Below are positions 4,519-37,291 of a stretch of DNA of 64,000 nucleotides, piece after piece (within the stretch, counting starts at the first letter, position 1; every line of letters begins with the position of its first letter). The notes below the pieces were generated by a model, which searched no databases, was not told the DNA's origin, and was given only the letters and a program-made list of their open reading frames with translations. The stretch covers positions 1 through 64,000 of the IMG/VR virus record IMGVR_UViG_3300032007_000052. The stretch is one strand, 5' to 3'. The stretch comes from a virus. Lineage: Duplodnaviria; Caudoviricetes. Both the position numbers and the translations under genes were made by a program.

Positions 4519-4575
4519 ATTGTTGTGCGTACTCATGGGTACGCACTTTTTTGTATGATAATGAGGTGCGTACTT

Positions 4576-5715
4576 ATGAGTAATAAAGAATTTTTAGATT
4601 ACGAGGGTTTGGGTTATTTAGCTGAACATGTTAATTTACAAGATGGCAAAAAGATTGTAAAGAAGTTACGAACTGGCGAAACTACATTAACGATTACGGA
4701 TTCAGTGATTACAACTGATTCTATTATTGACATTTATTCTGATTTATATGGTGCTTATGCTACTTCGGTAACACAGAGCAATGGTTCACTTAGTATTACT
4801 TTTCCAGCTCAAGATAGGGATTTAAATATAATTGTAATTGTAAGAGATGGTAGGGGAGGTGGCATTAACCCTACCGGAAATGCTGTTGAGGGTGATGTTT
4901 TACTTAACAAGACTTTCTCAAATGATGATGGTGTTGATAAGGTTGGAACAATGCCTAACAATGGTGCGGTATCTCCATCTGCATTATCTCCAAATGGTAG
5001 TTATACAATACCTGAAGGATATCACAATGGAAATGGAGTTGTGACTGCAAGTCCGAATACGGGTACATATTCTCCAACGACACGCAATGCGGCTCTTGAC
5101 ATGGGTATTGATAATCTTAACAGATATGTTGATACAACGGGAGTTCCTAATTCAAATACAGAAACTTACATTGCTTCGTCTCGTGGTGCGTCACTTGATA
5201 TGGGTGCAACAAATTCGTATAGATATGTAAATACAAATGGAGTACCCAATAGTAACAGTAGTACATACACTTACCCAGCAAATGATACGGGCGGAACAAA
5301 AGACCTCGGTGAGACTAACACCTACCGCTATGTAAACGCTTCTAACGTTTATAATAAAGGGATTACAGATAGTGGCGTTTTGTACGAATTAAAGATAACA
5401 CACGCAGTAAATAGTAACAAGATATATTTAACAATCATAGAACTTGTTAGTAATACAACTAAAGTAAATAATAAAGAATTTACTACCGGAACGGTAGGTG
5501 GAAATCCTTTATTTACACAATCGGTAGATGGAATTACTTTTAACGCAAAGATTGGGGATGGAACAAGTAATGTTTATGCTGGAACATATAATGTAACAGC
5601 TTCAAAAGGAACTTCAACTAAAACGAAAAGCATACCACAACACGGAGCTGGAAACTGGTCAAATAGTTATACGTTGATATTTGATTTTATGTTAAAAGGC
5701 TCAACGATTTATTAA
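4576..5715 (+). CDS. fibre-like protein A (paralog of 8454-9374)
   Basis: GAGGTG RBS, FLDYEGL N-terminus, repeated LDMG..N.YRYVNTNGVPNSN units, unique C-terminal domain after NVYNKG. Confidence 0.7.
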   Translation: MSNKEFLDYEGLGYLAEHVNLQDGKKIVKKLRTGETTLTITDSVITTDSIIDIYSDLYGAYATSVTQSNGSLSITFPAQDRDLNIIVIVRDGRGGGINPTGNAVEGDVLLNKTFSNDDGVDKVGTMPNNGAVSPSALSPNGSYTIPEGYHNGNGVVTASPNTGTYSPTTRNAALDMGIDNLNRYVDTTGVPNSNTETYIASSRGASLDMGATNSYRYVNTNGVPNSNSSTYTYPANDTGGTKDLGETNTYRYVNASNVYNKGITDSGVLYELKITHAVNSNKIYLTIIELVSNTTKVNNKEFTTGTVGGNPLFTQSVDGITFNAKIGDGTSNVYAGTYNVTASKGTSTKTKSIPQHGAGNWSNSYTLIFDFMLKGSTIY

Positions 5716-5760
5716 ATAAAATGATTTTTATAATGCCGACAATGTTGTAGGGAGGGAGCC

Positions 5761-6267
5761 ATGTCAATAATTAATTATTTAGATTATGACGGTATTGAAG
5801 AGGTCGCTGATATTATAAATAGGCGAGATGGGAAAAGAATAAAACGAACATTACTAGCAGGACAAACTGAATTGGTGATTACTGATCCATGGATAGATGA
5901 TTCTGCTGTTATTGATATATATCCGGAATTTTACGGAATTGATCCAATTAGTGTTATCCAAAATGGGTCAACACTGACGTTAACTTTTATGCAACAATTA
6001 TTTGATTTAGATGTTACTGTCGTTATTCGTGATTTAACCCGTCGTGAGGGGGGTGAGGGTGATATGTATAAGGCTGATTATGATCCAAATGAGGATGTTT
6101 TAGATGCTGGCGGTATTCCAGAATATGTACAAGATGTGATGGACACACACGAGGCTTCTTATGATTCGGATTCTGCTGTTAAAAACGCTGGCGGTATAGC
6201 TGACTATGTGCATGATTATTTAATTACAGAGGAGCAGTGGACGCAGATTAATTCGATTCTAAGTTGA
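5761..6267 (+). CDS. fibre-associated adaptor-like protein
   Basis: YLDYDGI N-terminus; shares a ~65-aa beta domain with 4576 and 9906; two repeats of YD....V..AGGI..YV. Confidence 0.6.
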   Translation: MSIINYLDYDGIEEVADIINRRDGKRIKRTLLAGQTELVITDPWIDDSAVIDIYPEFYGIDPISVIQNGSTLTLTFMQQLFDLDVTVVIRDLTRREGGEGDMYKADYDPNEDVLDAGGIPEYVQDVMDTHEASYDSDSAVKNAGGIADYVHDYLITEEQWTQINSILS

Positions 6268-6277
6268 GGTACAATCA

Positions 6278-6946
6278 ATGAAAACGATAATAAATTTTGC
6301 GAACAAAGTAAGAAGCTTGGTGGATGGCAGAATGTCGAATATCGCTAATGTCGAAGAGAGTCCGTCTACTCATGCTTATACAGTAGGTAAGCAGCTTATT
6401 TTCAATGGGTTACTTTGCAAGGCTACAAGTGCGATTGCGGTAGGTGATACTTTGGCAGTTGGCACTAATATAGCACTGTCTGACAATGTTGTAGAACAAA
6501 TCTATTCGCTAAATCAAGGTTTGACGAATAGTATAAAGATTTCCGATGTTGCGAATGATTTAACAGTTACTACCGCTGGAAAAGTACTTGATGCAAGACA
6601 AGGGAAGATTTTAAACGAAAAAATTCAACATGTTAGAATTGATTTTAAGCAGAATATAATCGACCAATTAGGCAACACAACATATTACGAAAGTGCTGAC
6701 GGACTTATTAAAAAATCTGTATATATTTTTTTACCAACAGAATATACACCTTCAAATGTTGAATGTATATGTACTCTAGCACAAACATCATCATGTTTCG
6801 GAATAACAACAGCGGCTATTTCTAGTGCAACAAGAATATATGTATATTATAACGCACTAATTCAAAACATCACTGCAAAAGCTTTAGCTACAAGCACAAA
6901 CCCAGTGTATGAGTGTTACGTTGACTTCTTTATATTGATGAAATAA
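6278..6946 (+). CDS. fibre-like protein B, expressed orientation of invertible cassette 1
   Basis: Constant N-terminus up to NQGLTNS, which is encoded by the 22-bp inversion site; variable C-terminus follows. Confidence 0.75.
   Translation: MKTIINFANKVRSLVDGRMSNIANVEESPSTHAYTVGKQLIFNGLLCKATSAIAVGDTLAVGTNIALSDNVVEQIYSLNQGLTNSIKISDVANDLTVTTAGKVLDARQGKILNEKIQHVRIDFKQNIIDQLGNTTYYESADGLIKKSVYIFLPTEYTPSNVECICTLAQTSSCFGITTAAISSATRIYVYYNALIQNITAKALATSTNPVYECYVDFFILMK
6511..6532 (+). repeat. inversion site IR1-left AAATCAAGGTTTGACGAATAGT
   Basis: Perfect inverted copy at 8306-8327. Confidence 0.9.
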
Positions 6947-8327
6947 TCATAAATTAGCTGATAGAAAAATTCGTGAATCATTAGTTCCAGCTTTTGTAGC
7001 AAGCTTATACGATGAGTTAAGTGTAAATGCATTGGTTGAATTTATACCTAAATTTATATTAGATACATCTACAATATCACCAAAGCCCACTATACCTATA
7101 TCAGGATTTAAAAGTGTTGGTGAACCCGAACCAACTTGAGTCACAATCCAATCACCGGTTATTTGTTCAATTGTTGGGGTTTTTATCATAGGAACTGGCA
7201 AATACATAGGAAACCAAATATCTGAAGTACTATATGGCATACCTATAGTCACTTGTAGTCCGTTTCCGTTCGTTCCCTTTTTTCCAATAATTTGAAAATA
7301 CCTCTGACACTTAGCTAACTCTTGTTGGTAATTCGGCGCACTATCCATAGAAAGCGTGGATATTGTACCGAGTTCGAGTTTGACAGAATGAATTGTAAGT
7401 GATTTGTTTGCTTTTATGTCAAAACAAGCTGCTTCATACCATCCAACGGTACCAGAAAAACTTGTTGGCATTGTAAATGTTACAGATGTAATATTCCTAC
7501 CACTTGGAATATCTATACCACATAAACTTTCCCAGTCTCCGACTTTTTTAGAAACTCCAGCATATAAACGTCCACAATTACTTGCTGGCGCAGTTACATC
7601 TGCGCTCAAAGTTAATGTTTTTCCTTTTAATCTATCTAAGTCCTCTAAAGGAAGGTTTTCAATAAAATAAATAGAACGAGATTGAGGGTTTGTAATTGTA
7701 ACACTCTTATCACTATTGCTTACAACTGTACAACTTTCTAGGCTTGAAAGCATATTCCATCTATCTAAAGAGTAACCACCGTTAAATGAATATGTTGACT
7801 GTCCTCTTTGATTAACAGTAAACCAAGGGTTATCCAAAAGATTAGGATTGCTAATAGCCTGAACATAAGGTGTCATTTCTCTATTTGTCATAGAGTATGG
7901 TACATATGTATCATCTTGGATAGAGGCTGGGCGGAGCATAGGCTTAAATACAAGATTATTCACAACACTTTGTGCTGTTATCCAAATTGCAACGCGCCAA
8001 AGCCCAGTATTTGTACTTAAAGGTATTGTTATTCCATTTCCTTCATCAGCAAATGACTCGTCTACATAATTTGTATATTGTAGTGAATACGTACTTCTTG
8101 AACCACCATCAGGACATCCGGACAAAATCATTCCCCTTGCGTCAATATCTAATGCAATTGTAAAGCCAGTATTAGCTGATGCGGTTCCATTTGCCGTGAT
8201 ACTACCATCATCATTTACAGTAAACGTCACACCATTCACCGTCTGATTTGTGGCATTATTTGGAAGTAGATTCTTCGCACCAAGCACATTATTCATATCA
8301 GCTAAACTATTCGTCAAACCTTGATTT
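6947..8327 (-). CDS. silent alternative C-terminal cassette for protein B (receptor/carbohydrate-binding-like)
   Basis: In-frame with the IR (NQGLTNS-LADMNN...). Its stop abuts the stop of 6278-6946. Contains NLLDNPWFTVNQRGQ and ELAKCQRYF tail-fibre-type motifs. Confidence 0.8.
8306..8327 (-). repeat. inversion site IR1-right
   Basis: ACTATTCGTCAAACCTTGATTT is the reverse complement of 6511-6532. Confidence 0.9.
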
Positions 8328-8453
8328 TTAGCATAATTGCAAACAAACGTAAATAAAATGATAAAGTAAACTATTCGCATAACTTACATTTTGCGAAGAG
8401 TTTTATTTGTAACTATATTAAATACCGAACACTATTTTAGTGAGGTGATTTTT

Positions 8454-9374
8454 ATGGCTTTTTACAAACTTGGCACTAGAGAAGGTGGTGTTAATCCTAC
8501 TGGTAATGCAGTAGAAGCTAACGTCTTAAAAGATAAAACATTCTCCAATGCTAGTGGTATAAATAAAATAGGCACTATGCCAGACAATTCTACAACTACG
8601 TCTAATGGTACTGTTCCTGGCATAAATTCATCATATCCTAATATTCCTATTCGCCCTGGCTCTAATTTGCAAATGGGTGTCAATACTGATGGTGTTAAGC
8701 AACTTGCTATAGAACCACCACAAGGTTATTATCCCGGAGGTGGATCAAGTTACATTGGTGTTGATGCAGATGATTTAGGTGATGCTGTTGCAAGTGATGT
8801 TGCTTCCGGAAAAACGTTCACATCTGAAAATGGTATTGCAGTAGTTGGTACAAGGGAAAATTCTGGAACTTACACTGCAACGTCCCGCAATGCTGCGCTC
8901 GACATGGGTAATCCTAACACATACAGATATGTCAATACAAATGGAGTGCCCAATAGTAATAGTGGAACATATACTTTTGCATCAGGTGATACCGGCGGCA
9001 CGAAAGATTTGGGTGAAACCAACACATACCGCTACGTAAACGCTACTAACGTCTACAATAAGGGTAAAAGTGACGGGGTTTTAAGTTCAAACTTTAAGTA
9101 TGCATTGCTAACGCAAAATAATTCCGGAATTGTCAGTTATATAAATTTAGAAACCGGAGCTTACATCAAACAAAGTATTGCATATACTACTTCTGTTACA
9201 ATAGATGGGCATGTATTATCACTTTCATATAGTAATGGTTACAATTTAAGTATTTCATCTGGAAGTATTTCAGGATATAGATTTACAGGACCAAACATAA
9301 GTTTTGCAGTTTTAAATAACTTTAAAAGTGGAAATATAGGGGCTGTAGCACAAGTTATTTTTAATTTTGACTAA
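8454..9374 (+). CDS. fibre-like protein C, expressed orientation of invertible cassette 2
   Basis: GAGGTG RBS and ATG 8454; paralog of 4576; variable C-terminus after NVYNKGKSDGVL. Confidence 0.75.
   Translation: MAFYKLGTREGGVNPTGNAVEANVLKDKTFSNASGINKIGTMPDNSTTTSNGTVPGINSSYPNIPIRPGSNLQMGVNTDGVKQLAIEPPQGYYPGGGSSYIGVDADDLGDAVASDVASGKTFTSENGIAVVGTRENSGTYTATSRNAALDMGNPNTYRYVNTNGVPNSNSGTYTFASGDTGGTKDLGETNTYRYVNATNVYNKGKSDGVLSSNFKYALLTQNNSGIVSYINLETGAYIKQSIAYTTSVTIDGHVLSLSYSNGYNLSISSGSISGYRFTGPNISFAVLNNFKSGNIGAVAQVIFNFD
9021..9084 (+). repeat. inverted repeat IR2-left (64 bp)
   Basis: 63/64 identical to the reverse complement of 9820-9883. Confidence 0.92.
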
Positions 9375-9463: not shown

Positions 9464-9883
9464 TCATTTTTCTATGAATAAGTTATACCCAGAAGTTGTA
9501 TAGGCAGTGTTAGCAGACAAATCGGTTATATAACCACCACCACTTACAGTACTAGTTGGGTTGCTTGAACTTTGTTGATTATATGTTTGTTTATTAGATT
9601 TATATACTTTACATGCAAATGGCAATGTAACAGTGATAGTATTCGTACTAACAATTCGTGATACTACGATATTATCGTAAAGTGTAACAGAATACCCATA
9701 ATGAGCATTAGGAGAAATACTGTTTATCATTACATAATTTCCAGAATGATATATTGCTTCGAAATTAATCCAACCACCACTAGCTGTTGAAATAATATTA
9801 ATTAAAAGCCATCTTCCATTTAAAACCCCGTCACTTTTACCCTTATTGTAGACGTTAGTAGCGTTTACATAGCGGTATGTGTT
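9464..9883 (-). CDS. silent alternative C-terminal cassette for protein C
   Basis: Begins NTYRYVNATNVYNKGKSDGVL then diverges (NGRWLLIN...). The upstream in-frame part only overlaps the + strand gene 9906, so it lacks a credible start. Confidence 0.8.
   Translation of the reverse strand, partial: NTYRYVNATNVYNKGKSDGVLNGRWLLINIISTASGGWINFEAIYHSGNYVMINSISPNAHYGYSVTLYDNIVVSRIVSTNTITVTLPFACKVYKSNKQTYNQQSSSNPTSTVSGGGYITDLSANTAYTTSGYNLFIEK
9820..9883 (-). repeat. inverted repeat IR2-right (64 bp)
   Basis: Reverse complement of 9021-9084 with one mismatch. Confidence 0.92.
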
Positions 9884-9905
9884 CGGGAAACGAAAGGAGT
9901 AAAAG

Positions 9906-10454
9906 TTGAGAAAAGTTAAGTTAAATAATAAATTATATGAATTAGTAAACGAGCCTAACCGAAGTACATCTAATTTGCAATTTAATGTTGTCAAAGGTGA
10001 AAACACTTTTGAATCGATTATTGATAATGCTGATGGTAATGACATTATTGATGTATATGAGGATGATGAGAAGGTTGGAACTTATAAAGGATATTCCGAA
10101 CTCTTTGTAGCAAGTTATGTCAAGGGGAATGATTCAATTTCGATTGAACTAATCAATAATGACATTATTCAACAGATTGAAGATATCAATACAAGCATTG
10201 ATGAATTGGATGAAGATATTGAAGGAGTTAAGCAAGATGTTTCTAATATCACTCCAATAACATTAACTAAGACTGCTTACATTGATGATACAGAGATTGT
10301 ATTTGAAGATGTGCCAGAGGGAACACTTTCTGTTTACACAATTGATTCTGAAGGAAAACCAATTGATTTTGAGATGAATCGTGAGAATAATGTGGTTACA
10401 CTTTCATTTGAACCACTTGAACATGTAACAAATATTACATTGACTATTAGATGA
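9906..10454 (+). CDS. hypothetical virion protein (coiled coil plus C-terminal beta domain)
   Basis: AAGGAG RBS, TTG start; C-terminus resembles the shared domain of 4576 and 5761. Confidence 0.65.
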   Translation: MRKVKLNNKLYELVNEPNRSTSNLQFNVVKGENTFESIIDNADGNDIIDVYEDDEKVGTYKGYSELFVASYVKGNDSISIELINNDIIQQIEDINTSIDELDEDIEGVKQDVSNITPITLTKTAYIDDTEIVFEDVPEGTLSVYTIDSEGKPIDFEMNRENNVVTLSFEPLEHVTNITLTIR

Positions 10455-11784: not shown

Positions 11785-12906
11785 ATGGCTGCTGAGAAAG
11801 GTTTAATTAAAAATGCCGATCTTGCGAAAGCGAGAGAGGTGGATTTCGTCTATCGTTTTCAGGATGGAATCAAAAAGCTTATTGAGGTTTTGGGAATTAC
11901 AAAGAAGATTCCAAAAGTTGCAGGTACTAATTTAAAGGCTTATAAGGCAACAGGTACTTTGTTAGACGGTATCGTTGCTGAAGGCGACATTATTCCACTT
12001 TCCCACTATAAGACAGTTCCAGTAACTTTTGCTGAGATTACTCTTAAAAAGTGGAGAAAAGCTACTTCTGCTGAGGCTATTGTTGAAAAGGGTTACGATC
12101 AGGCTGTTCAGATGACAACTGATGAGATGCTTAAGGATGTTCAGAAGGGTATTAAGAAGGATTTCTTCTCTTTCCTTGGGACAGGTACAGGTCTTGCAGC
12201 AGGTACTACTTTCCAGGACACAATCGCTCAGATTTGGGGACAGCTTCAGCTTTTGTATGAAGATACAGAGATGGAAGCTGTTTATTTTATGAATCAGCTT
12301 GATGCTGCTTCTTATCTTGGTAGTGCTCCTATCACAATGCAGACTGCATTTGGTATGACATATATCGAAGATTTCCTTGGACTTGGAACTGTTATCTTTA
12401 ATTCTTCTGTTCCAAAGGGTACTATTTACGGTACAGCTAAAGAGAACATTGTTCTTTACTATGTTCCTGTTAATGGTGCTGATCTTGACAATGCATTTGA
12501 ATTTGTTGCTGATCCTCTTGGATATATTGGTATTCACGAACAGCCTAATTATGACAATGTAACAGCTAGTGATACTGTTATGTGTGGTATGGTTCTGTTT
12601 GCTGAGAGAATTGATGGTATTGTAAAAGGCTCTATTGGTGGTACTGTTACTGCAACTGTTACAACTGATGTTGATGCTATTACAATTCCGGTTGATGGTG
12701 TTGATACTGTTCATGCTAAGATTAATCCTCGTGGCACAGCTTATACTTGGGCTTCTTCTGATGCATCTGTTGCTACTGTTAAGAATGGTCTTAGCGATTC
12801 TGATGTTGTCATTACAGGTGTTGCAGCTGGTACAGCTAATGTTACATGCACTATCAATGGTAGTGTTGTTAAGACTATTGCTGTTACAATTTCTGCCGGC
12901 GCATAA
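11785..12906 (+). CDS. major capsid protein with C-terminal Ig-like domain
   Basis: VAEGDIIPLS and KKWRKATSAEAI motifs; C-terminal YTWASSDASVATV..ITGVAAGTANVT Ig-like (Big_2) motif. Confidence 0.88.
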   Translation: MAAEKGLIKNADLAKAREVDFVYRFQDGIKKLIEVLGITKKIPKVAGTNLKAYKATGTLLDGIVAEGDIIPLSHYKTVPVTFAEITLKKWRKATSAEAIVEKGYDQAVQMTTDEMLKDVQKGIKKDFFSFLGTGTGLAAGTTFQDTIAQIWGQLQLLYEDTEMEAVYFMNQLDAASYLGSAPITMQTAFGMTYIEDFLGLGTVIFNSSVPKGTIYGTAKENIVLYYVPVNGADLDNAFEFVADPLGYIGIHEQPNYDNVTASDTVMCGMVLFAERIDGIVKGSIGGTVTATVTTDVDAITIPVDGVDTVHAKINPRGTAYTWASSDASVATVKNGLSDSDVVITGVAAGTANVTCTINGSVVKTIAVTISAGA

Positions 12907-18685: not shown

Positions 18686-21600
18686 ATGGCTGAACTTGAT
18701 TCTTTAAGTATTAAAATTGAGGCTTCGTCAAAGGATGCGGCGAGTGCTATTGATTCGCTCATCGAGAATTTAAAAAATCTGAACGAACAACTTGGGGTTG
18801 TAAAGGGAAATTCTTTCTCTAAATCTATGGAGAGTGTTGTATCTAGTGCTAACAAGATGCAGGAGTCTCTTAAGAAGGTTGGGAATGTTTCTTATGACAA
18901 AGCTATTTCCTCAATGAACACTTTGGCTAGATCTGTAGAAGATTCGACTTCTTCGATGTCTAAGAGCATTGAAGACGCTATTTCAAATGCTAAGGAATTT
19001 GGAAGTGTCATTAGGGGGATGGAAGCTGGGAAGTTAGAATTCAATGAGGAAGAATACAAGGAGGCTATTCAGGGATATTCTGAGGCTAAAGATGCTATTG
19101 ATAAGTTTAAGAGTACGTTATTGACGGTTGGGGATATTGAAAATCCTATTGATGAAGTTGGTGAATCAGCTGAAGAATTACCGAAAGCTACAAGTGAATT
19201 AGAAAAATATCTTTCCAAAATCAGGGAATACAAGGATGTTATTCGTGGTATGGAGAGTGGTAAGGTTGAGTTTAATGAGGACATTTATACTGAGGCTATT
19301 AGGGGATATGATGAGGCTTCAAGTGCGTTAAAAGAACTAAAACAGTCGCTTTTGGATGTCGGGGATGCTTCTAGTAAAGCGGGGGTATCTTTGAAATCAG
19401 CTTTTCCTGAAGCTTCAAGTGATATTGAAAATATGCTTGGCAAATTAAGAGAATACAAGGCTGTTGTCAAGGATATGGAGGGTGGAAAGGTTGCTTTTGA
19501 TAAGGCTCAGTATGATGAGGCTGTCGCAGGGGTAAAAACCTTAACTCAATCTATAAAAGATTATAAGAATAGTTTATCTGGATCTGATGAGGGAGCAGAG
19601 GGTGTCAAAAATGTTGGAGCTGCGGCTGAGAACGCGGCTATTAAAGTTGAGCAATTAGGGGATGCTCTTAAGGGACTTGGAAATATTAAACAAGTCATTG
19701 AGGGTGGTGAGATAAAGGAATTTGGTTTCTCAAGCGATGTGGTTGGAAATTTTGAAAAGATGCTTCCAGCTATTTCTGACTTTGGAAAACAACTTCCTAC
19801 GATTATAGAGGCTAGCAAGCAACTTCCTATGATTGTTGATTCTACTGCTGAGGTTATTCCTACTAGAGCCATGAGCGATATCGAAAAGATGATTTCTAAG
19901 CTTAGGGAATACAAGACTGTTCTAAGGGAGATGGAAAGTGGGAAAGTTGCTTTTGATGTTGAACAGTATGACGAGGCTGTATCTGGGATTGATAGGCTTA
20001 CTTCGGCTATTAAGGAATATAAAAATAATTTGGTTGATGCGGGCAAGGTGACGGAAAGTTTGCCGAAGGGGTTGGAAGAGGCTTCAGAAAAAAATGAGAA
20101 AGCTTTAAGTGGCGAATCTGGGACTAAATTTGTATTTAATTTACAATCTATTTCGAGCGAATTAGATAATGTATCGAGAGAATTTGATAAATTTGGAAAT
20201 GCAGGAGTTAAAGCTTTTAAATTCCTAATATCTCCGTTCACTGCTACAGTTAATATCTTTAAAGGTAAACTTAAAGATATGGCTAATAGGATGACTGATT
20301 TCAGGAAAAATATAGATGATAATTTGAAGAAAATGTCTCAATTCTGGAATCGAGTTATGAAGACATTTACATTTATGCTTGTTAGAAAAGCTATTGATGC
20401 AGTGATAAAGAGTACTAGTGATGCTATTCAGTCAATGGCAAAATTTTCGAATGCAATGGGAACACAATTTAATAAGAGTATTTCATTGCTTGTAGCTGAT
20501 TTCCAATACTTAGGAAGATCAATTGTTAGTGTTTTTGCTCCTTTAATAAATGCAGTTGTTCCGATTATTGACGCGATTGTAGATAGAATTGCAACGTTAT
20601 TATCATATGTTGGAATGTTAATGGCGGCACTTACGGGCGCAACTTCTTTTACAAAGGCTAAAAAGAAGGTTGATAACTACGCTGCGTCTCTTGATAAGGC
20701 ATCAAAATCCGCTAAAAATTTGACAATGGGAATTGATGAGTTAAATATTTTGTCAGAAAGTGGAGGCGGCGCTGGTGGTGGTGCCGGAGATTGGGCTGAT
20801 GCGTGGGAAGAAGTCGAAATTCCTGATTGGGCTAAAGAACTTGCAGACAAAATAAAACTAACCGCTAAAGATATATTTGATCCATTAAAGAAAGCCTGGG
20901 ATAAAGTTAAAGACTATATTCTTTCGGGTTGGAAATACATGGTTGATCAAATGAAAAAGTTATTAGGCGATGTTTGGCGGGATTTTATGAGGGTTTGGAA
21001 AACCCCTGAAACTTCTAGAATTTTTGAAAATCTTTTAAACATTGTAGGGGATATAGAACGAGTAATAGGAAATCTTGCTCAAAAGTTTAGAGAAGCTTGG
21101 AATTACAATCAAACTGGATATAAGATTTTAAGAAACATACGAGACATTATGGCAACACTTGTAGATCACGCAAGAAACGTCTCTTATTACATGATTGGAT
21201 GGTCTAAAAATATTGATTTTAAACCGCTTCTTACATCGTTTGAACAGCTGACATTAGTTGCAGTTCGTGTAGCTGATTTTATTGGTGGTGTATTTGAGGA
21301 TGTAATGATATTAGGTGTTCTCAAATTTATAAAGTTTATTATAGAAGAAGAACTTCCACTTTTAAATACGGAGCTAAAATCTATTGTTGATGAATTTAAT
21401 TTCAATTCATTGCGAGAAAGTTTAAAACCTGTTTGGTCGGCTATCGAAGAAATGCTTGAAAATATAACGGTAGGAATAACAAAAGCAATAGGAAATCTTG
21501 GAAGAAGCCTGGCAAGGTTTACTCACACGTCAGAATTTAGAGAGTTTTTAAACAATCTTGTTAAAATGACAAAAATGATTACTGCTGAAAGAGTTGAGAA

Positions 21601-24600
21601 AGTTTTGACTGGACTTGGAGAGGCGATATTAGCGATTGGAAAAGCTTTAATTAAATTTGTAAACAGCAGAGCTTTTCAAGGATTTTTGGAAGCAATTGCC
21701 AAGTGGATAGACAATCATTCAACAAAAGATATAGCAAATGTATTCTTAGGACTAGCTAAAGCAATTTTAGCATTTAAGTTTACCGCTTTTACGGCATCTA
21801 AATTATCTGGATTTTTTAAATTCATTACTATTATTTCTGCATTAAAAAATCTTTCTGCAATTGCTAAGGGATTCAATGATGTTGCAAGCGCAACAGAGGC
21901 TGTTGGAGAGTCGGCATCACTTGTCAAAGGAACAACGGAAGCTGTTTCGGGATTCGGAACGATTGTTAATCTAGTAAAAGATAAGGCTATTGGGTTTAAG
22001 GATGTTCTTTTGGGTTTGCGAAATGTTGATTTAAAGGGAGCGTTTTCTGGGGCAAAAGAGGGAGTTAATGCTTTTTCGGCTAGCCTTAGTCCAGCTGTGG
22101 TTGCTATTGGTTCATTAGCAACAGGTTTTTTGGAGTTTAAAACTGTTTCGAGTACCATTGAGAAATCGAGGTTGGGTATTGATTCTCTGACTGAAACTAT
22201 TATTAAACTTACTGCGGAAGTTGGTCTTGCATCGGCGGCATTTACGGCATTGTTAGGATTTCCTGCGGGAATAATTGCAGGTGGGGCGGTTGCGGCAGTA
22301 GGTGCAATAAAAGGTATTGTGGATGCAACTAATCAAGTAAATCTTGATGGAATATACTCATCAATAACAACTCAAGGGGAAACAACTCTAGGAGAAGTTA
22401 AAAAGTGGTATGACGAGGCTTCAAAGACAGTTGACGATAATATAACAAAGTGGAAAGATTCAGAGAGAAGATTAACTCAGGATAGAAGCGATTTGCAAGA
22501 GTACGGAAAGGATATTGAAGGCCTTGTTAGTGCAATAAATAATACTGGTGAGGCAACTTCCGGAATGGCTGATAAATTGCTTGGAAAATATGAGGAATTA
22601 GAGAAAGGAATTAACTCATATATTGATTCAAGTACTGATTCGATAGTTGCTAATATCTTAGCTCAAAAAGAGTATTTGACTGCGCAAGGTTATAATGTTG
22701 ATGAGATGATTGTCAACATATATAAAACTGCTGACGAGGAGAAAAAAGCTGTTGGAGAAGCTATTAAAGGTGTTAGAGAAGCAGTACAAAAGTTAAAAGG
22801 ACTAACGAAGGGGACTAAAGAATATAATGATCAAATGAAAAAAGTCTCTGAAGCAACAGCAAAGGCTTATCCTGAATTAAAAAAGTATTATGATCAGATT
22901 GATAACGTTGATACTTCTAAGGCGGTTGAAGAAATAAGCAAACTGGGTAGTAGTTTAGATTTAAGCCAATATCAGGACGATCCTGAAGCCGCGATAAATG
23001 CTATAAATTCCCATATTGATGAGGTTAAAACAACTTATCAAACAAAGATGGGAGAATTAAAAACTGAGGCTGAAGCGCTTAAAAAACAAATTGATTTGGC
23101 ACCGGGGATTTCTGATGAGGCAAAGGAAGCAGCAAAACTATCAATAGATCATGCTTATGATGAAGCGGGACAACAATTGACATCAAAAACAAATGAAATA
23201 CTTGGAACTTACGGGAATACCCTTAAAGGGCAGATGGAGTCGGTTGTTACTCAGGCTTCTCAGGATTGGGACAAAGGGCTTGTAAGTACTTTCCTACAAC
23301 CATACAACAATAAGCAAGAATATATTTTATATCAGTTGCAGCAATATACTAAGAAAATGGTTGATGGAGGTGTAAAAGATAGTTTAATTAGTGCTTATTC
23401 TGCACTTCCTGGTGATACGCAAACAGATGTTGTTAATGCAATGTTTAATCTTGCAGCTAATCAGGAAAATGCATACAAGGATAATCTAGCTAAGGCTAGT
23501 TATGGAATGGCTGAATATAACACTAATGTTATGCAAACTGTTTTGAATGCGGTTAATAATCTTGATTTTTCAGGCCCAGCGGAAGTACAAGCCACAGGTC
23601 AATTTAATGCCTTAAAGATTGCAATGCAAGGACTTGATTTTAAATCACTTGGAGAACTTTGGAATAAATTGACTGGTAATGCAATGATTTCTGATAAAAA
23701 GATTGTCGAAGATGCTAATAGGCTTGTTGCAAAAGAAGGTTCAAATGCTTTTAGCGATGAGTATAAAACTTTCCTGACGGATAATAAAACGGTTATCAAT
23801 GAAATGGGGAAAACTGCTGTACCTTACGGAAAAAGCTTTACGGAAGGTTTTAATAAAGGAATAAGTGATAATGCGAAAGATACTCAAAAACCTATTGAGG
23901 AATGGATGAAAAAAGCTGACGCATATATACACGGCAATCCTTTTGCCCCATTTGGGTCCCCAAATAAGAAGACGATGGAATACGGAAAGGATTTTGTTGT
24001 TGGATTCAATCTTGGGATTACCAATAATATGACTTCTAGTCAAACATCAATTCAAACATGGTTTCAAGCTATCAATACAGAAGCAAAAAGTGGGGTAGCA
24101 ACTATTAAGAATACTTTTAAAACTTTATTATCTGAAGCGTTGACAATTTCTATTGATACTGATGAAGGAAGTTTTAAAACCGCGTTTGAAAACATTACTA
24201 AAGCAGTTACTGATGGAGTAACAACACTTGGAAAAAATCTTCAAGAAACTATTCTCCCAAATATGAAAGAAACCTATATTGCTCCATTCTTCACATTAGA
24301 ACAATGGCAACCATTATTTGATACTTTCAAAGAAGAAGTTCTTGTTGTTGAGCAAGAAAGCCTTAACACATGGTTTACTGAGTCAATGACTACTTGGTGG
24401 GAAGAAAGCCTTATAACATGGTTTGCTGTTGAAAAATGGGATAAGGAAATAATTAAACCTCTTGAGGATTTGATTCACGAAAGGTTTACATTATTTGAAA
24501 AATGGTGGAATCTTTCAATGGCTACTTGGTGGGAGACAAAAGTTGTTCCGTGGTTTATCTATAAAAAATGGAATGACAAATTTATGGTTATTCATAAAGC

Positions 24601-25084
24601 TGCTGAGGATGTGTTTATTAAGGTGTTAAACACTATTAAACTTAAAATGTCAGAGTCAGAAAAAGCAGTTAGAGAAGCTTGCAAAAATATAAAAAGTGCA
24701 CTTTCAGAAATCATATCTGCTATTTCAGAAGTAGAATCGAAACTATCATCCCTTGGAAGTACTTCTGGGAATATTAAGGTCAATATTCCAAAGTTTGCCA
24801 CGGGTGGTTATCCAACAAGAGGGTCCTTATTTATAGCTAATGAGGCTGGTCCAGAGCTTGTAGGACGTATGAACGGTAGAACCGCAGTTTCTTCAAACGA
24901 TGAAATTACAGGAATTAGAGATGCAATCGTTGATACGTCGAACATAGAAACGGAGCTTTTAAGTAGGCTTGTAATGATCGACCAGGCTATTCTTGATAAG
25001 GACGTTGTTATTATTGGAGACAGAGAACTTGCGAGAATTGTTGGAGAGGGTTCTTCTCAGATGGGAATGAACATTATCAGTTAA
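18686..25084 (+). CDS. tail tape measure protein
   Basis: 2132 aa, helical, W-periodic segments, C-terminal PKFATGG...ANEAGPELVG. Confidence 0.92.
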   Translation: MAELDSLSIKIEASSKDAASAIDSLIENLKNLNEQLGVVKGNSFSKSMESVVSSANKMQESLKKVGNVSYDKAISSMNTLARSVEDSTSSMSKSIEDAISNAKEFGSVIRGMEAGKLEFNEEEYKEAIQGYSEAKDAIDKFKSTLLTVGDIENPIDEVGESAEELPKATSELEKYLSKIREYKDVIRGMESGKVEFNEDIYTEAIRGYDEASSALKELKQSLLDVGDASSKAGVSLKSAFPEASSDIENMLGKLREYKAVVKDMEGGKVAFDKAQYDEAVAGVKTLTQSIKDYKNSLSGSDEGAEGVKNVGAAAENAAIKVEQLGDALKGLGNIKQVIEGGEIKEFGFSSDVVGNFEKMLPAISDFGKQLPTIIEASKQLPMIVDSTAEVIPTRAMSDIEKMISKLREYKTVLREMESGKVAFDVEQYDEAVSGIDRLTSAIKEYKNNLVDAGKVTESLPKGLEEASEKNEKALSGESGTKFVFNLQSISSELDNVSREFDKFGNAGVKAFKFLISPFTATVNIFKGKLKDMANRMTDFRKNIDDNLKKMSQFWNRVMKTFTFMLVRKAIDAVIKSTSDAIQSMAKFSNAMGTQFNKSISLLVADFQYLGRSIVSVFAPLINAVVPIIDAIVDRIATLLSYVGMLMAALTGATSFTKAKKKVDNYAASLDKASKSAKNLTMGIDELNILSESGGGAGGGAGDWADAWEEVEIPDWAKELADKIKLTAKDIFDPLKKAWDKVKDYILSGWKYMVDQMKKLLGDVWRDFMRVWKTPETSRIFENLLNIVGDIERVIGNLAQKFREAWNYNQTGYKILRNIRDIMATLVDHARNVSYYMIGWSKNIDFKPLLTSFEQLTLVAVRVADFIGGVFEDVMILGVLKFIKFIIEEELPLLNTELKSIVDEFNFNSLRESLKPVWSAIEEMLENITVGITKAIGNLGRSLARFTHTSEFREFLNNLVKMTKMITAERVEKVLTGLGEAILAIGKALIKFVNSRAFQGFLEAIAKWIDNHSTKDIANVFLGLAKAILAFKFTAFTASKLSGFFKFITIISALKNLSAIAKGFNDVASATEAVGESASLVKGTTEAVSGFGTIVNLVKDKAIGFKDVLLGLRNVDLKGAFSGAKEGVNAFSASLSPAVVAIGSLATGFLEFKTVSSTIEKSRLGIDSLTETIIKLTAEVGLASAAFTALLGFPAGIIAGGAVAAVGAIKGIVDATNQVNLDGIYSSITTQGETTLGEVKKWYDEASKTVDDNITKWKDSERRLTQDRSDLQEYGKDIEGLVSAINNTGEATSGMADKLLGKYEELEKGINSYIDSSTDSIVANILAQKEYLTAQGYNVDEMIVNIYKTADEEKKAVGEAIKGVREAVQKLKGLTKGTKEYNDQMKKVSEATAKAYPELKKYYDQIDNVDTSKAVEEISKLGSSLDLSQYQDDPEAAINAINSHIDEVKTTYQTKMGELKTEAEALKKQIDLAPGISDEAKEAAKLSIDHAYDEAGQQLTSKTNEILGTYGNTLKGQMESVVTQASQDWDKGLVSTFLQPYNNKQEYILYQLQQYTKKMVDGGVKDSLISAYSALPGDTQTDVVNAMFNLAANQENAYKDNLAKASYGMAEYNTNVMQTVLNAVNNLDFSGPAEVQATGQFNALKIAMQGLDFKSLGELWNKLTGNAMISDKKIVEDANRLVAKEGSNAFSDEYKTFLTDNKTVINEMGKTAVPYGKSFTEGFNKGISDNAKDTQKPIEEWMKKADAYIHGNPFAPFGSPNKKTMEYGKDFVVGFNLGITNNMTSSQTSIQTWFQAINTEAKSGVATIKNTFKTLLSEALTISIDTDEGSFKTAFENITKAVTDGVTTLGKNLQETILPNMKETYIAPFFTLEQWQPLFDTFKEEVLVVEQESLNTWFTESMTTWWEESLITWFAVEKWDKEIIKPLEDLIHERFTLFEKWWNLSMATWWETKVVPWFIYKKWNDKFMVIHKAAEDVFIKVLNTIKLKMSESEKAVREACKNIKSALSEIISAISEVESKLSSLGSTSGNIKVNIPKFATGGYPTRGSLFIANEAGPELVGRMNGRTAVSSNDEITGIRDAIVDTSNIETELLSRLVMIDQAILDKDVVIIGDRELARIVGEGSSQMGMNIIS

Positions 25085-36724: not shown

Positions 36725-37291
36725 TTATACTATATCAGAATATCCTAGAAGCATCTGGTCTTCTTCATAGGAACTTACACCTAAATATCTTTGAGTAATA
36801 GCAGGACTGCTATGTTGATAAAAATTCATTACTTTAATAATGTTGTAGCCACTTGCTTCATAGAGATTCATTCCACAATATTTCCTAAATGAGTGAGTAG
36901 ATATGTTTTCATATTCCAAAAAATCACATACCTTTTTTAGATATTTTTGAACTGATCGTTCTGTCATAGGGAATATGAGATCATTTTTCTTTATTTCATT
37001 TTCCTTGATGTATAAGTTCAAATGCTTATAGAACTCGTGACTGATGCTCTTGTAGCGTTTCTTTTTTGTTTTCTGCTCAATTATACTAATCTTATAAATA
37101 CCACCCGCAAAAACGAAGCTAGAGGGTTTTAAAGCTAATACATCCTCAATACGGATTCCTAAATTTGCTTCGGCTATAAGAACTTCTGATATTCTGATGT
37201 TTGGTTTGAAATAGTATGAGCCTGTTCTCATTGCTTCGATAATTGTTTTATATTGGTGTCTGGTTAACGGTACTGTTGCGTATGCTCCCAT
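36725..37291 (-). CDS. small tyrosine recombinase (catalytic domain only)
   Basis: R (GIRIED), K (EQKT), HSFRK, H (QHSS) and Y (TQRYL) all present. Confidence 0.88.
   Translation of the reverse strand: MGAYATVPLTRHQYKTIIEAMRTGSYYFKPNIRISEVLIAEANLGIRIEDVLALKPSSFVFAGGIYKISIIEQKTKKKRYKSISHEFYKHLNLYIKENEIKKNDLIFPMTERSVQKYLKKVCDFLEYENISTHSFRKYCGMNLYEASGYNIIKVMNFYQHSSPAITQRYLGVSSYEEDQMLLGYSDIV

Follow-up and report, generated by a model that had tools for sequence, protein, structure and literature searches.

A probable site-specific inversion switch of fibre tips in a 94-kb siphovirus-type phage

Introduction

Tail-fibre switching by DNA inversion is classical for serine invertases. In the Gin, Cin, Min and Pin systems (of Mu, P1, p15B and e14, respectively), inversion swaps the C-terminus of a tail fibre and hence the host range, using serine recombinases, an enhancer and Fis. 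Here we describe a locus that follows the same logic in a 64,000-nucleotide stretch of a Caudoviricetes virus (positions 1 to 64,000 of IMG/VR record IMGVR_UViG_3300032007_000052, referred to as the window in the rest of the paper). A fibre gene starting at position 6278 carries one C-terminal cassette joined in frame and a second one stored in the opposite orientation, and the pair lies between inverted copies of a 22-bp sequence. Unlike in the Gin family, no serine recombinase is present and the site is a tyrosine-type dyad. A preliminary description of the window had termed the element shufflon-like. The switch of a C-terminus stands, but the term overstates the likeness, as two crossover sites make a binary switch and the recombinase is not Rci-like.

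Among the closest described systems is the Rin shufflon of Bifidobacterium breve and B. longum prophages, a fibre switch operated by a tyrosine recombinase (Mavrich et al. 2018, PMC6109161). Like the present locus, it is phage-encoded and combines a constant N-terminal receptor-binding or fibre part, C-terminal cassettes lacking starts of their own and short repeats in frame with an invertase predicted to be of the tyrosine type, and the evidence for it comes partly from inversions between related genomes (PMC6109161). Where Rin has several cassettes and rix sites of 11 bp (TTCCCTAACCC), the present locus has a pair of cassettes and a 30-bp dyad that contains a 22-bp core; rin adjoins its cassettes and codes for core-binding and catalytic domains, whereas the recombinase considered here lies 29 kb away and consists of a catalytic domain alone. 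A third dyad does not feature in the description of Rin, whose host phylum is also different (PMC6109161). A BV01-like phage of Phocaeicola vulgatus (2026 preprint, PMC13596623) likewise inverts the 3′ end of a tail-fibre gene using short directional motifs and a phage recombinase. That shufflon has a motif of 10 bp and three cassettes, which can adopt six configurations, and is flanked by its recombinase; its switching was seen in reads, whereas the inversion reported here is known from assembled genomes (PMC13596623).

The R64 shufflon also relies on a tyrosine recombinase, Rci, and on sfx sites that share with the present site the arrangement of a 12-bp arm, a short spacer and a 12-bp arm; in sfx, conservation is confined to the spacer and a single arm, as at the right-hand site here (PMC11852207). 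R64 switches the C-terminus of the adhesin PilV, encoded by a plasmid pilus gene, whereas we deal with a phage fibre gene. Rci is about twice as long as the 188-residue recombinase found here, has an extra C-terminal domain and adjoins its shufflon, and R64 has seven sfx sites, all asymmetric, with four segments and a 7-bp spacer, in contrast to two sites of which the left one is a full dyad (PMC11852207). RecV of Clostridioides difficile matches what we propose in being a remote tyrosine invertase acting on several segments with dissimilar short repeats, but it flips promoter and 5′ untranslated region switches in a bacterial chromosome rather than phage coding cassettes, and the comparison is one of layout (PMC5903667). 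In systematic surveys, tail fibres are listed among the targets of inversion (PMC9881135).

The principle itself is not new, fibre switches by tyrosine recombinases having been described in phages since 2018 (PMC6109161, PMC13596623). What differs here is a binary switch in which a 30-bp full dyad is paired with a half site and accompanied by a third, conserved dyad; a distant recombinase that consists of the catalytic domain only and has chromosomal relatives; the occurrence of one module in unrelated backbones; and, in the next gene, a second switch of different construction. The host range of rumen and gut phages is set largely by fibre tips, and two tips from one genome help to explain how phages keep pace with variable bacterial surfaces, a point relevant to host prediction and phage engineering. 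The locus adds a well-defined, directly testable 30-bp tyrosine-type site, a family of small recombinases (~188 amino acids (aa), more than 500 relatives, some of them chromosomal in Lachnospiraceae) whose members are candidates for trans-acting invertases, and evidence that the 94-kb phage and ~31-kb temperate phages exchange the whole module.

A fibre gene with one joined and one stored tip cassette

The elements of the locus are listed below. A tip is called ON when it is joined to the anchor domain and OFF when it is stored; states in other phages were read from public assemblies of related genomes.

6278-6532, + strand: constant 5′ part, codons 1-85, an anchor domain ending in NQGLTNS; ATG with a GAGG ribosome-binding site
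6533-6946, + strand: short tip cassette, joined (ON) in the window; codons 86-222 plus stop; fibre repeat and small head domain
6947-8305, − strand: long tip cassette, stored (OFF) in the window; 452 codons plus stop; three predicted beta-sandwich domains
8328-8380, − strand: open frame ahead of the long cassette (MRIVYFIILFTFVCNYAK); ATG without Shine-Dalgarno sequence
6502-6531: left site L, a full 12-6-12 dyad, CTATTCGCTAAA-TCAAGG-TTTGACGAATAG; outer arm CTATTCGCTAAA at 6502-6513, asymmetric spacer TCAAGG at 6514-6519, inner arm TTTGACGAATAG at 6520-6531
8307-8336: right site R, inverted relative to L; inner arm at 8307-8318, spacer at 8319-8324, degenerate outer arm at 8325-8336

Two open reading frames (ORFs), one on the + strand (6278-6946, 222 aa) and one on the − strand (6947-8380, 477 aa), stand tail to tail with 0 bases between them. 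Both contain a 22-nt inverted repeat (AAATCAAGGTTTGACGAATAGT), exact at 6511-6532 (+) and 8306-8327 (−), which grows to 25 nt with one mismatch. As the preliminary description had stated, the repeat is perfect and codes in frame for NQGLTNS in both ORFs (residues 79-85 of the + ORF and 19-25 of the − ORF). None of 100 dinucleotide-preserving shuffles matched the 22-nt repeat, and a scan of the complete 94-kb sequence that tolerated 4 mismatches revealed no third copy of the core. Inversion between the two copies is predicted to swap 137 residues for 452, in agreement with the ~137 and ~450 first estimated, yielding a 537-aa protein.

The arms of L match each other at 10 of 12 positions around an asymmetric 6-bp spacer, just as first reported. 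The outer arm of R (reverse complement TTATGCTAAAAA) matches the outer arm of L at 7 of 12 positions in register and lacks the distal CTATTCG; the earlier reading of R as one arm, the spacer and a few further bases was thus essentially right. Two variants of the R outer arm occur among relatives, both without CTATTCG. R keeps the spacer and one arm, in the manner of sfx, while L is a full conserved dyad. Exactly two inverted core copies were present in all eleven relatives' loci scanned for both. Across 11 loci, L varies at 2 of 30 positions compared to 16 of 60 just upstream; among third codon positions, 0 of 10 vary in L compared to 13 of 20 upstream (~6e-4 by hypergeometric calculation), indicating that both arms of L are under selection beyond the protein code. 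R is conserved even on its non-coding side. Furthermore, base variants of the inner arm (a T, A or S codon) travel with the cassette and turn up at L and at R alike, but each outer arm keeps to its own position. The exchange is thereby placed between inner and outer arms, as expected for crossover in the spacer.

Both tips resemble fibre proteins. The short tip matches PF22337 (E-value 1.1e-5, under the Pfam cut-off), and its profile finds the tail fibre protein 4mtm in the PDB (E-value 1.8e-5). The long tip matches the tail fibre family phrog_4492 (E-value 1.9e-21), and its AlphaFold model (mean pLDDT 76) gives Foldseek hits to the carbohydrate-binding modules CBM4 1gui (TM 0.59) and CBM16 2zew; its sequence profile retrieved nothing significant from the PDB. 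The anchor N-terminus is joined to many different C-termini among relatives. In small phages the fibre gene is located between tail genes and the holin-lysin genes, the usual place of a receptor-binding protein, whereas in the 94-kb phage it sits in the head module. A receptor-binding role of the fibre is likely.

Natural chimeras exist among the short-tip homologues (P0251 and P0252). One consists of a long-tip shaft followed by a short-tip head domain, and another carries the anchor domain directly on the head domain, without an NQGLTNS site; according to these chimeras, the head domain of ~100 residues is an exchangeable unit.

The − ORF is most likely a cassette rather than a gene. It is devoid of the 85-residue anchor domain that is found in every joined homologue. 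The ATG at 8380 has no Shine-Dalgarno sequence, while correctly spaced GAGG or GGAG motifs precede the starts at 6278, 8455, 5761 and 3091, among others. Scanning for promoters and terminators gave matches at chance level, and the only nearby promoter-like match falls downstream of the 8380 ATG; an independent promoter and start for this ORF, which the preliminary description had regarded as telling against a switch, were thus not found. The first 18 residues of the ORF represent no more than a continuation of the open frame through intergenic DNA, and this leader, MRIVYFII...NYAK, heads every stored homologue of the long tip. Judging from these signals, the open frame at 8328-8380 is probably not translated.

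Both orientations occur among related phages

The preliminary description had proposed that inversion switches the fibre C-terminus. Relatives support this. Four proteins of 535-547 aa (P0003, P0004, P0007 and P0010) consist of the anchor, NQGL(T/A)NS and the long tip, which is exactly the predicted type of fusion. In addition, the segment is inverted at the repeat relative to the window in three related metagenomic phages (L002, L018 and L021), with alignments that end inside the repeat. L002 is a 94.7-kb contig of the same phage type, in which the inverted segment is 79% identical over 1458 nt; window positions 5701-6532 align forward, 6511-7942 reversed and 8303-8500 forward again. L018 has a different phage backbone and aligns over 1443 nt, collinear but inverted, at 84.5%. 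L021 carries the short cassette of the window inverted at R with 94.3% nucleotide identity, compared to 92.5-92.9% for the flanks. The short cassette is also stored at R in L025 (95.9%), behind a third kind of N-terminus (756-aa fibre, site at residue 302). A single orientation in all relatives, the other outcome that had been named as unfavourable to the idea, is not what the assemblies contain.

Of the 120 best long-tip homologues, 18 carry the tip in the ON state and 10 in the OFF state. No ON/OFF pair above 80% identity was found for the long tip (best, 79%). Short-tip homologues fall into five joined and three stored clusters. In the tree of short tips, the ON cassette of the window has an OFF cassette as its sister (93% aa identity), and a further OFF cassette is nested within an ON clade. 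ON and OFF states are thus interspersed at 7-10% divergence, from which it follows that the state changed at least twice within ~10% divergence. That switching takes place within one phage population is our inference; the two orientations compared here come from related genomes.

A candidate invertase encoded 29 kb away

36725-37291, − strand: candidate invertase, a 188-aa tyrosine recombinase with catalytic domain only (PF00589, E-value 3.3e-17)

The 188-aa protein, whose gene had been pointed out in the preliminary description and is indeed present on the − strand, matches PF00589 with 63 bits against a cut-off of 27 and is the sole recombinase of the whole 94-kb genome. No PF00239 match, i.e. 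no serine recombinase, was found in the complete genome, nor is there any recombinase gene in the fibre block between 3 and 11 kb. The view that the system is of the tyrosine type and not a serine invertase is accordingly supported. The complete catalytic set (R47, K74, H133, R136, H160 and Y169) is invariant in 28 homologues. The catalytic domain begins at residue ~9 of 188, and there is no C-terminal extension. The profile of the protein aligns solely to the catalytic halves of XerH (175-356), XerA (154-313) and XerD, indicating that it has no core-binding domain. The family comprises 544 matches, nearly all of 183-227 aa.

A 99%-identical recombinase is encoded on the contig that carries the flipped L002 locus. 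The nearest cellular homologue comes from Butyrivibrio sp. NC3005 (L026:6001-6567, NZ_KE384206.1), which has a stand-alone 188-aa copy, 79% identical and not in a prophage, next to metH and genes coding for a TPP enzyme, an alanine symporter and a cellulase. Its location suggests a chromosomal trans-acting invertase, and the copy also points to the likely host group. No L-type dyads were found near the recombinase genes or their chromosomal homologues. All in all, we lean towards the 188-aa recombinase as the enzyme acting on L and R.

A conserved third dyad and a module shared by different phages

8371-8400: third dyad, site 3, CTATTCGCATAA-CTTACA-TTTTGCGAAGAG, from a dyad scan

Site 3, which the preliminary description did not mention, starts 34 nt past the outer arm of R. 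Its arms resemble those of L while its spacer differs (CTTACA versus TCAAGG), and it should therefore not cross over with L or R. L and site 3 are the only CTATTCG-N16-CGAATAG dyads in 94 kb. Site 3 is kept in 9 of 9 relatives examined (ten loci including the window), where it is usually a better palindrome (...TTTTACGAATAG). Site 3 is a candidate accessory recombinase-binding site or module boundary; our best guess is the former, which may offset the poor outer arm of R.

When the 94-kb phage is compared with ~31-kb temperate phages, homology begins near 6174 and ends at 8405, just past site 3; the unit from anchor domain to site 3 therefore appears to act as a portable module. The module is common to L018, L022 and L032-L034, which are ~31-kb temperate phages with tail genes upstream and holin-lysin and integrase genes downstream. 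Between L003, a large phage, and L034, a small temperate one, the segment is 99.8% identical.

L025 represents a third phage type, whose tape measure has 2411 aa; in its fibre gene (L025:10001-12486), the same L and tips stand on a different N-terminus of 301 residues.

One could go further and imagine a three-site portable module in which a minimal recombinase, from the phage or the host, loads onto R via site 3 and permits inversion only. We put this forward as a doubtful extension; if true, and if driven by a chromosomal "master invertase" such as the 79%-identical Butyrivibrio protein, it would place a phage receptor switch under host enzymatic control.

Proposed mechanism and alternative explanations

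Given these data, programmed site-specific inversion of the fibre C-terminus is very probable. A binary inversion switch in the fibre gene, with this phage's own recombinase as the most likely enzyme, is likely to be the best explanation of the whole. According to this model, the promoter, the ribosome-binding site and the first 85 codons would remain fixed, while the two start-less cassettes lie tail to tail between the inverted 22-bp cores. Strand cleavage and exchange by the tyrosine recombinase would take place within the spacer TCAAGG of L and R, the 1.8-kb segment would be turned round, and the anchor would become joined to either the 137-residue short tip or the 452-residue long tip. 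The predicted inverted junction is of the 6519|8318 type, with the left outer flank followed by ...AATAGTTTAGCTGATATG. The 188-aa recombinase would act at a distance, from 29 kb off, and site 3 may help it to assemble on the arm-poor R. Such a switch would probably serve as bet-hedging on the host receptor, with two virion types from one genome.

Several observations speak against this model. A Logan contig from one sample, an independent assembly of this strain, spans both 22-bp repeats unbroken in the orientation of the window. No joined form of this exact long cassette was found in 5.8 billion proteins, the best match being 64% identical. The recombinase gene lies 29 kb from the switch and nothing ties it to the site. 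In the ~31-kb temperate phages carrying the same module, of which 21 of ~31 kb could be seen, the only such enzymes are a 348-aa integrase and, in some cases, a 356-aa recombinase. A 188-aa enzyme is absent from that part, so that the module may rely on an enzyme of the host. Finally, the second cassette in the next fibre gene is bounded by an unrelated 64-nt repeat without a dyad (see below), so that one enzyme may not explain both switches.

The strongest alternative keeps the programmed inversion and assigns it to a host-encoded recombinase, for example a chromosomal member of the 188-aa family, leaving the phage gene another role or that of a back-up. The stand-alone copy of NC3005 among housekeeping genes and the temperate phages bearing L, R and site 3 fit such an arrangement, for which genome-wide master invertases like RecV provide a precedent (PMC5903667). 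Yet the 94-kb phage family keeps its recombinase at 99% identity, above the conservation of the fibre flanks, ~10 kb of the temperate contigs are unseen, and no L-type dyad lies near the chromosomal copy. We consider a host enzyme unlikely.

It could also be argued that there is no active switch, and that general or phage homologous recombination at a conserved junction causes rare rearrangements, the stored cassette being a leftover of shuffling. The cassettes are indeed highly mosaic, with chimeras such as P0251, the long tip shows no ON/OFF pair above the 80% level, and one sample yielded a single orientation. Nevertheless, 22 bp of identity is very short for homologous recombination, and the site does not vary at synonymous positions and is conserved even where R is non-coding. 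The 12-6-12 dyad is of the core type used by tyrosine recombinases and has a third conserved dyad next to it, start-less stored cassettes remain open in many lineages, and ON and OFF forms are interspersed at 7-10% divergence; mere shuffling is therefore quite improbable.

That the − ORF 6947-8380 is an independent gene, with its own start and a hydrophobic leader and with the repeat as a shared protein motif, is hardly credible, for although it is open from the ATG at 8380 and its first 18 residues resemble a signal or anchor peptide, it has no Shine-Dalgarno sequence, no promoter-like match above chance and none of the anchor domain of joined homologues, and the repeat is identical at the nucleotide level, beyond the protein.

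Phage genome, host and neighbouring features

The complete virus record has 94,032 bp with direct terminal repeats, and the window is its first 64 kb. Bases 1-100 recur exactly at 93046, which fits the recorded direct terminal repeat of ~1 kb (genome 1-~987 and 93046-94032). By gene content the phage is of the siphovirus type, and the fibre-like gene block at 3.1-10.7 kb sits between the MuF gene and the head protein gene:

553-2151: portal
2179-2850: MuF-like head protein
11785-12906: major head protein
18686-25084: tape measure, 2132 aa
37302-37844, − strand: 180-aa gene directly upstream of the recombinase gene

The phage genes carry Shine-Dalgarno sites and G+C is ~36%. Sample names of the relatives point to rumen metagenomes, and together with the NC3005 homologue of the recombinase they make a host among the Lachnospiraceae (rumen Butyrivibrio-like) likely. 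A megablast comparison with cultured phages gave no relative, and tblastn with the fibre and the recombinase returned distant matches only, at 34% identity or less. No relative of the fibre N-terminal domain was found in IMG/VR. The 20-nt core gave a chance match only in IMG/VR and none in 185,579 species genomes; JGI metagenomes contained one true relative, L008.

Homologues of the 180-aa gene product bear the precomputed label MrpR_C_cat (PF22823), which hmmscan did not reproduce, leaving a weak helix-turn-helix hint only. The protein had no sequence match in the PDB, and its single-sequence fold was unusable (pLDDT 37). MrpR itself is the recombinase-like repressor of SPbeta (PMC10516654). 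Any link of the 180-aa gene to the switch is speculative.

The next fibre gene contains a second switch. A 64-nt inverted repeat (98%) at 9021-9084 and 9820-9883 bounds a start-less − strand cassette, 9464-10045, which also lacks a Shine-Dalgarno sequence. A site common to both cassettes was considered and rejected, since the 64-nt repeat lacks a dyad and does not convincingly resemble the site of the first. A third copy (89%) lies at 5317-5360 within the gene 4525-5715, which makes a 4.5-kb inversion also conceivable. The Logan contig of this strain ends inside the 64-nt repeat.

Lastly, TnpB/Cas12f-like genes occur at differing places in relatives (L002:2650-3918, L010:3823-5091, L003:245-1678 and L021:8991-9608). 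These insertions adjoin the portal and MuF genes or the recombinase gene, and are mobile within this phage family.

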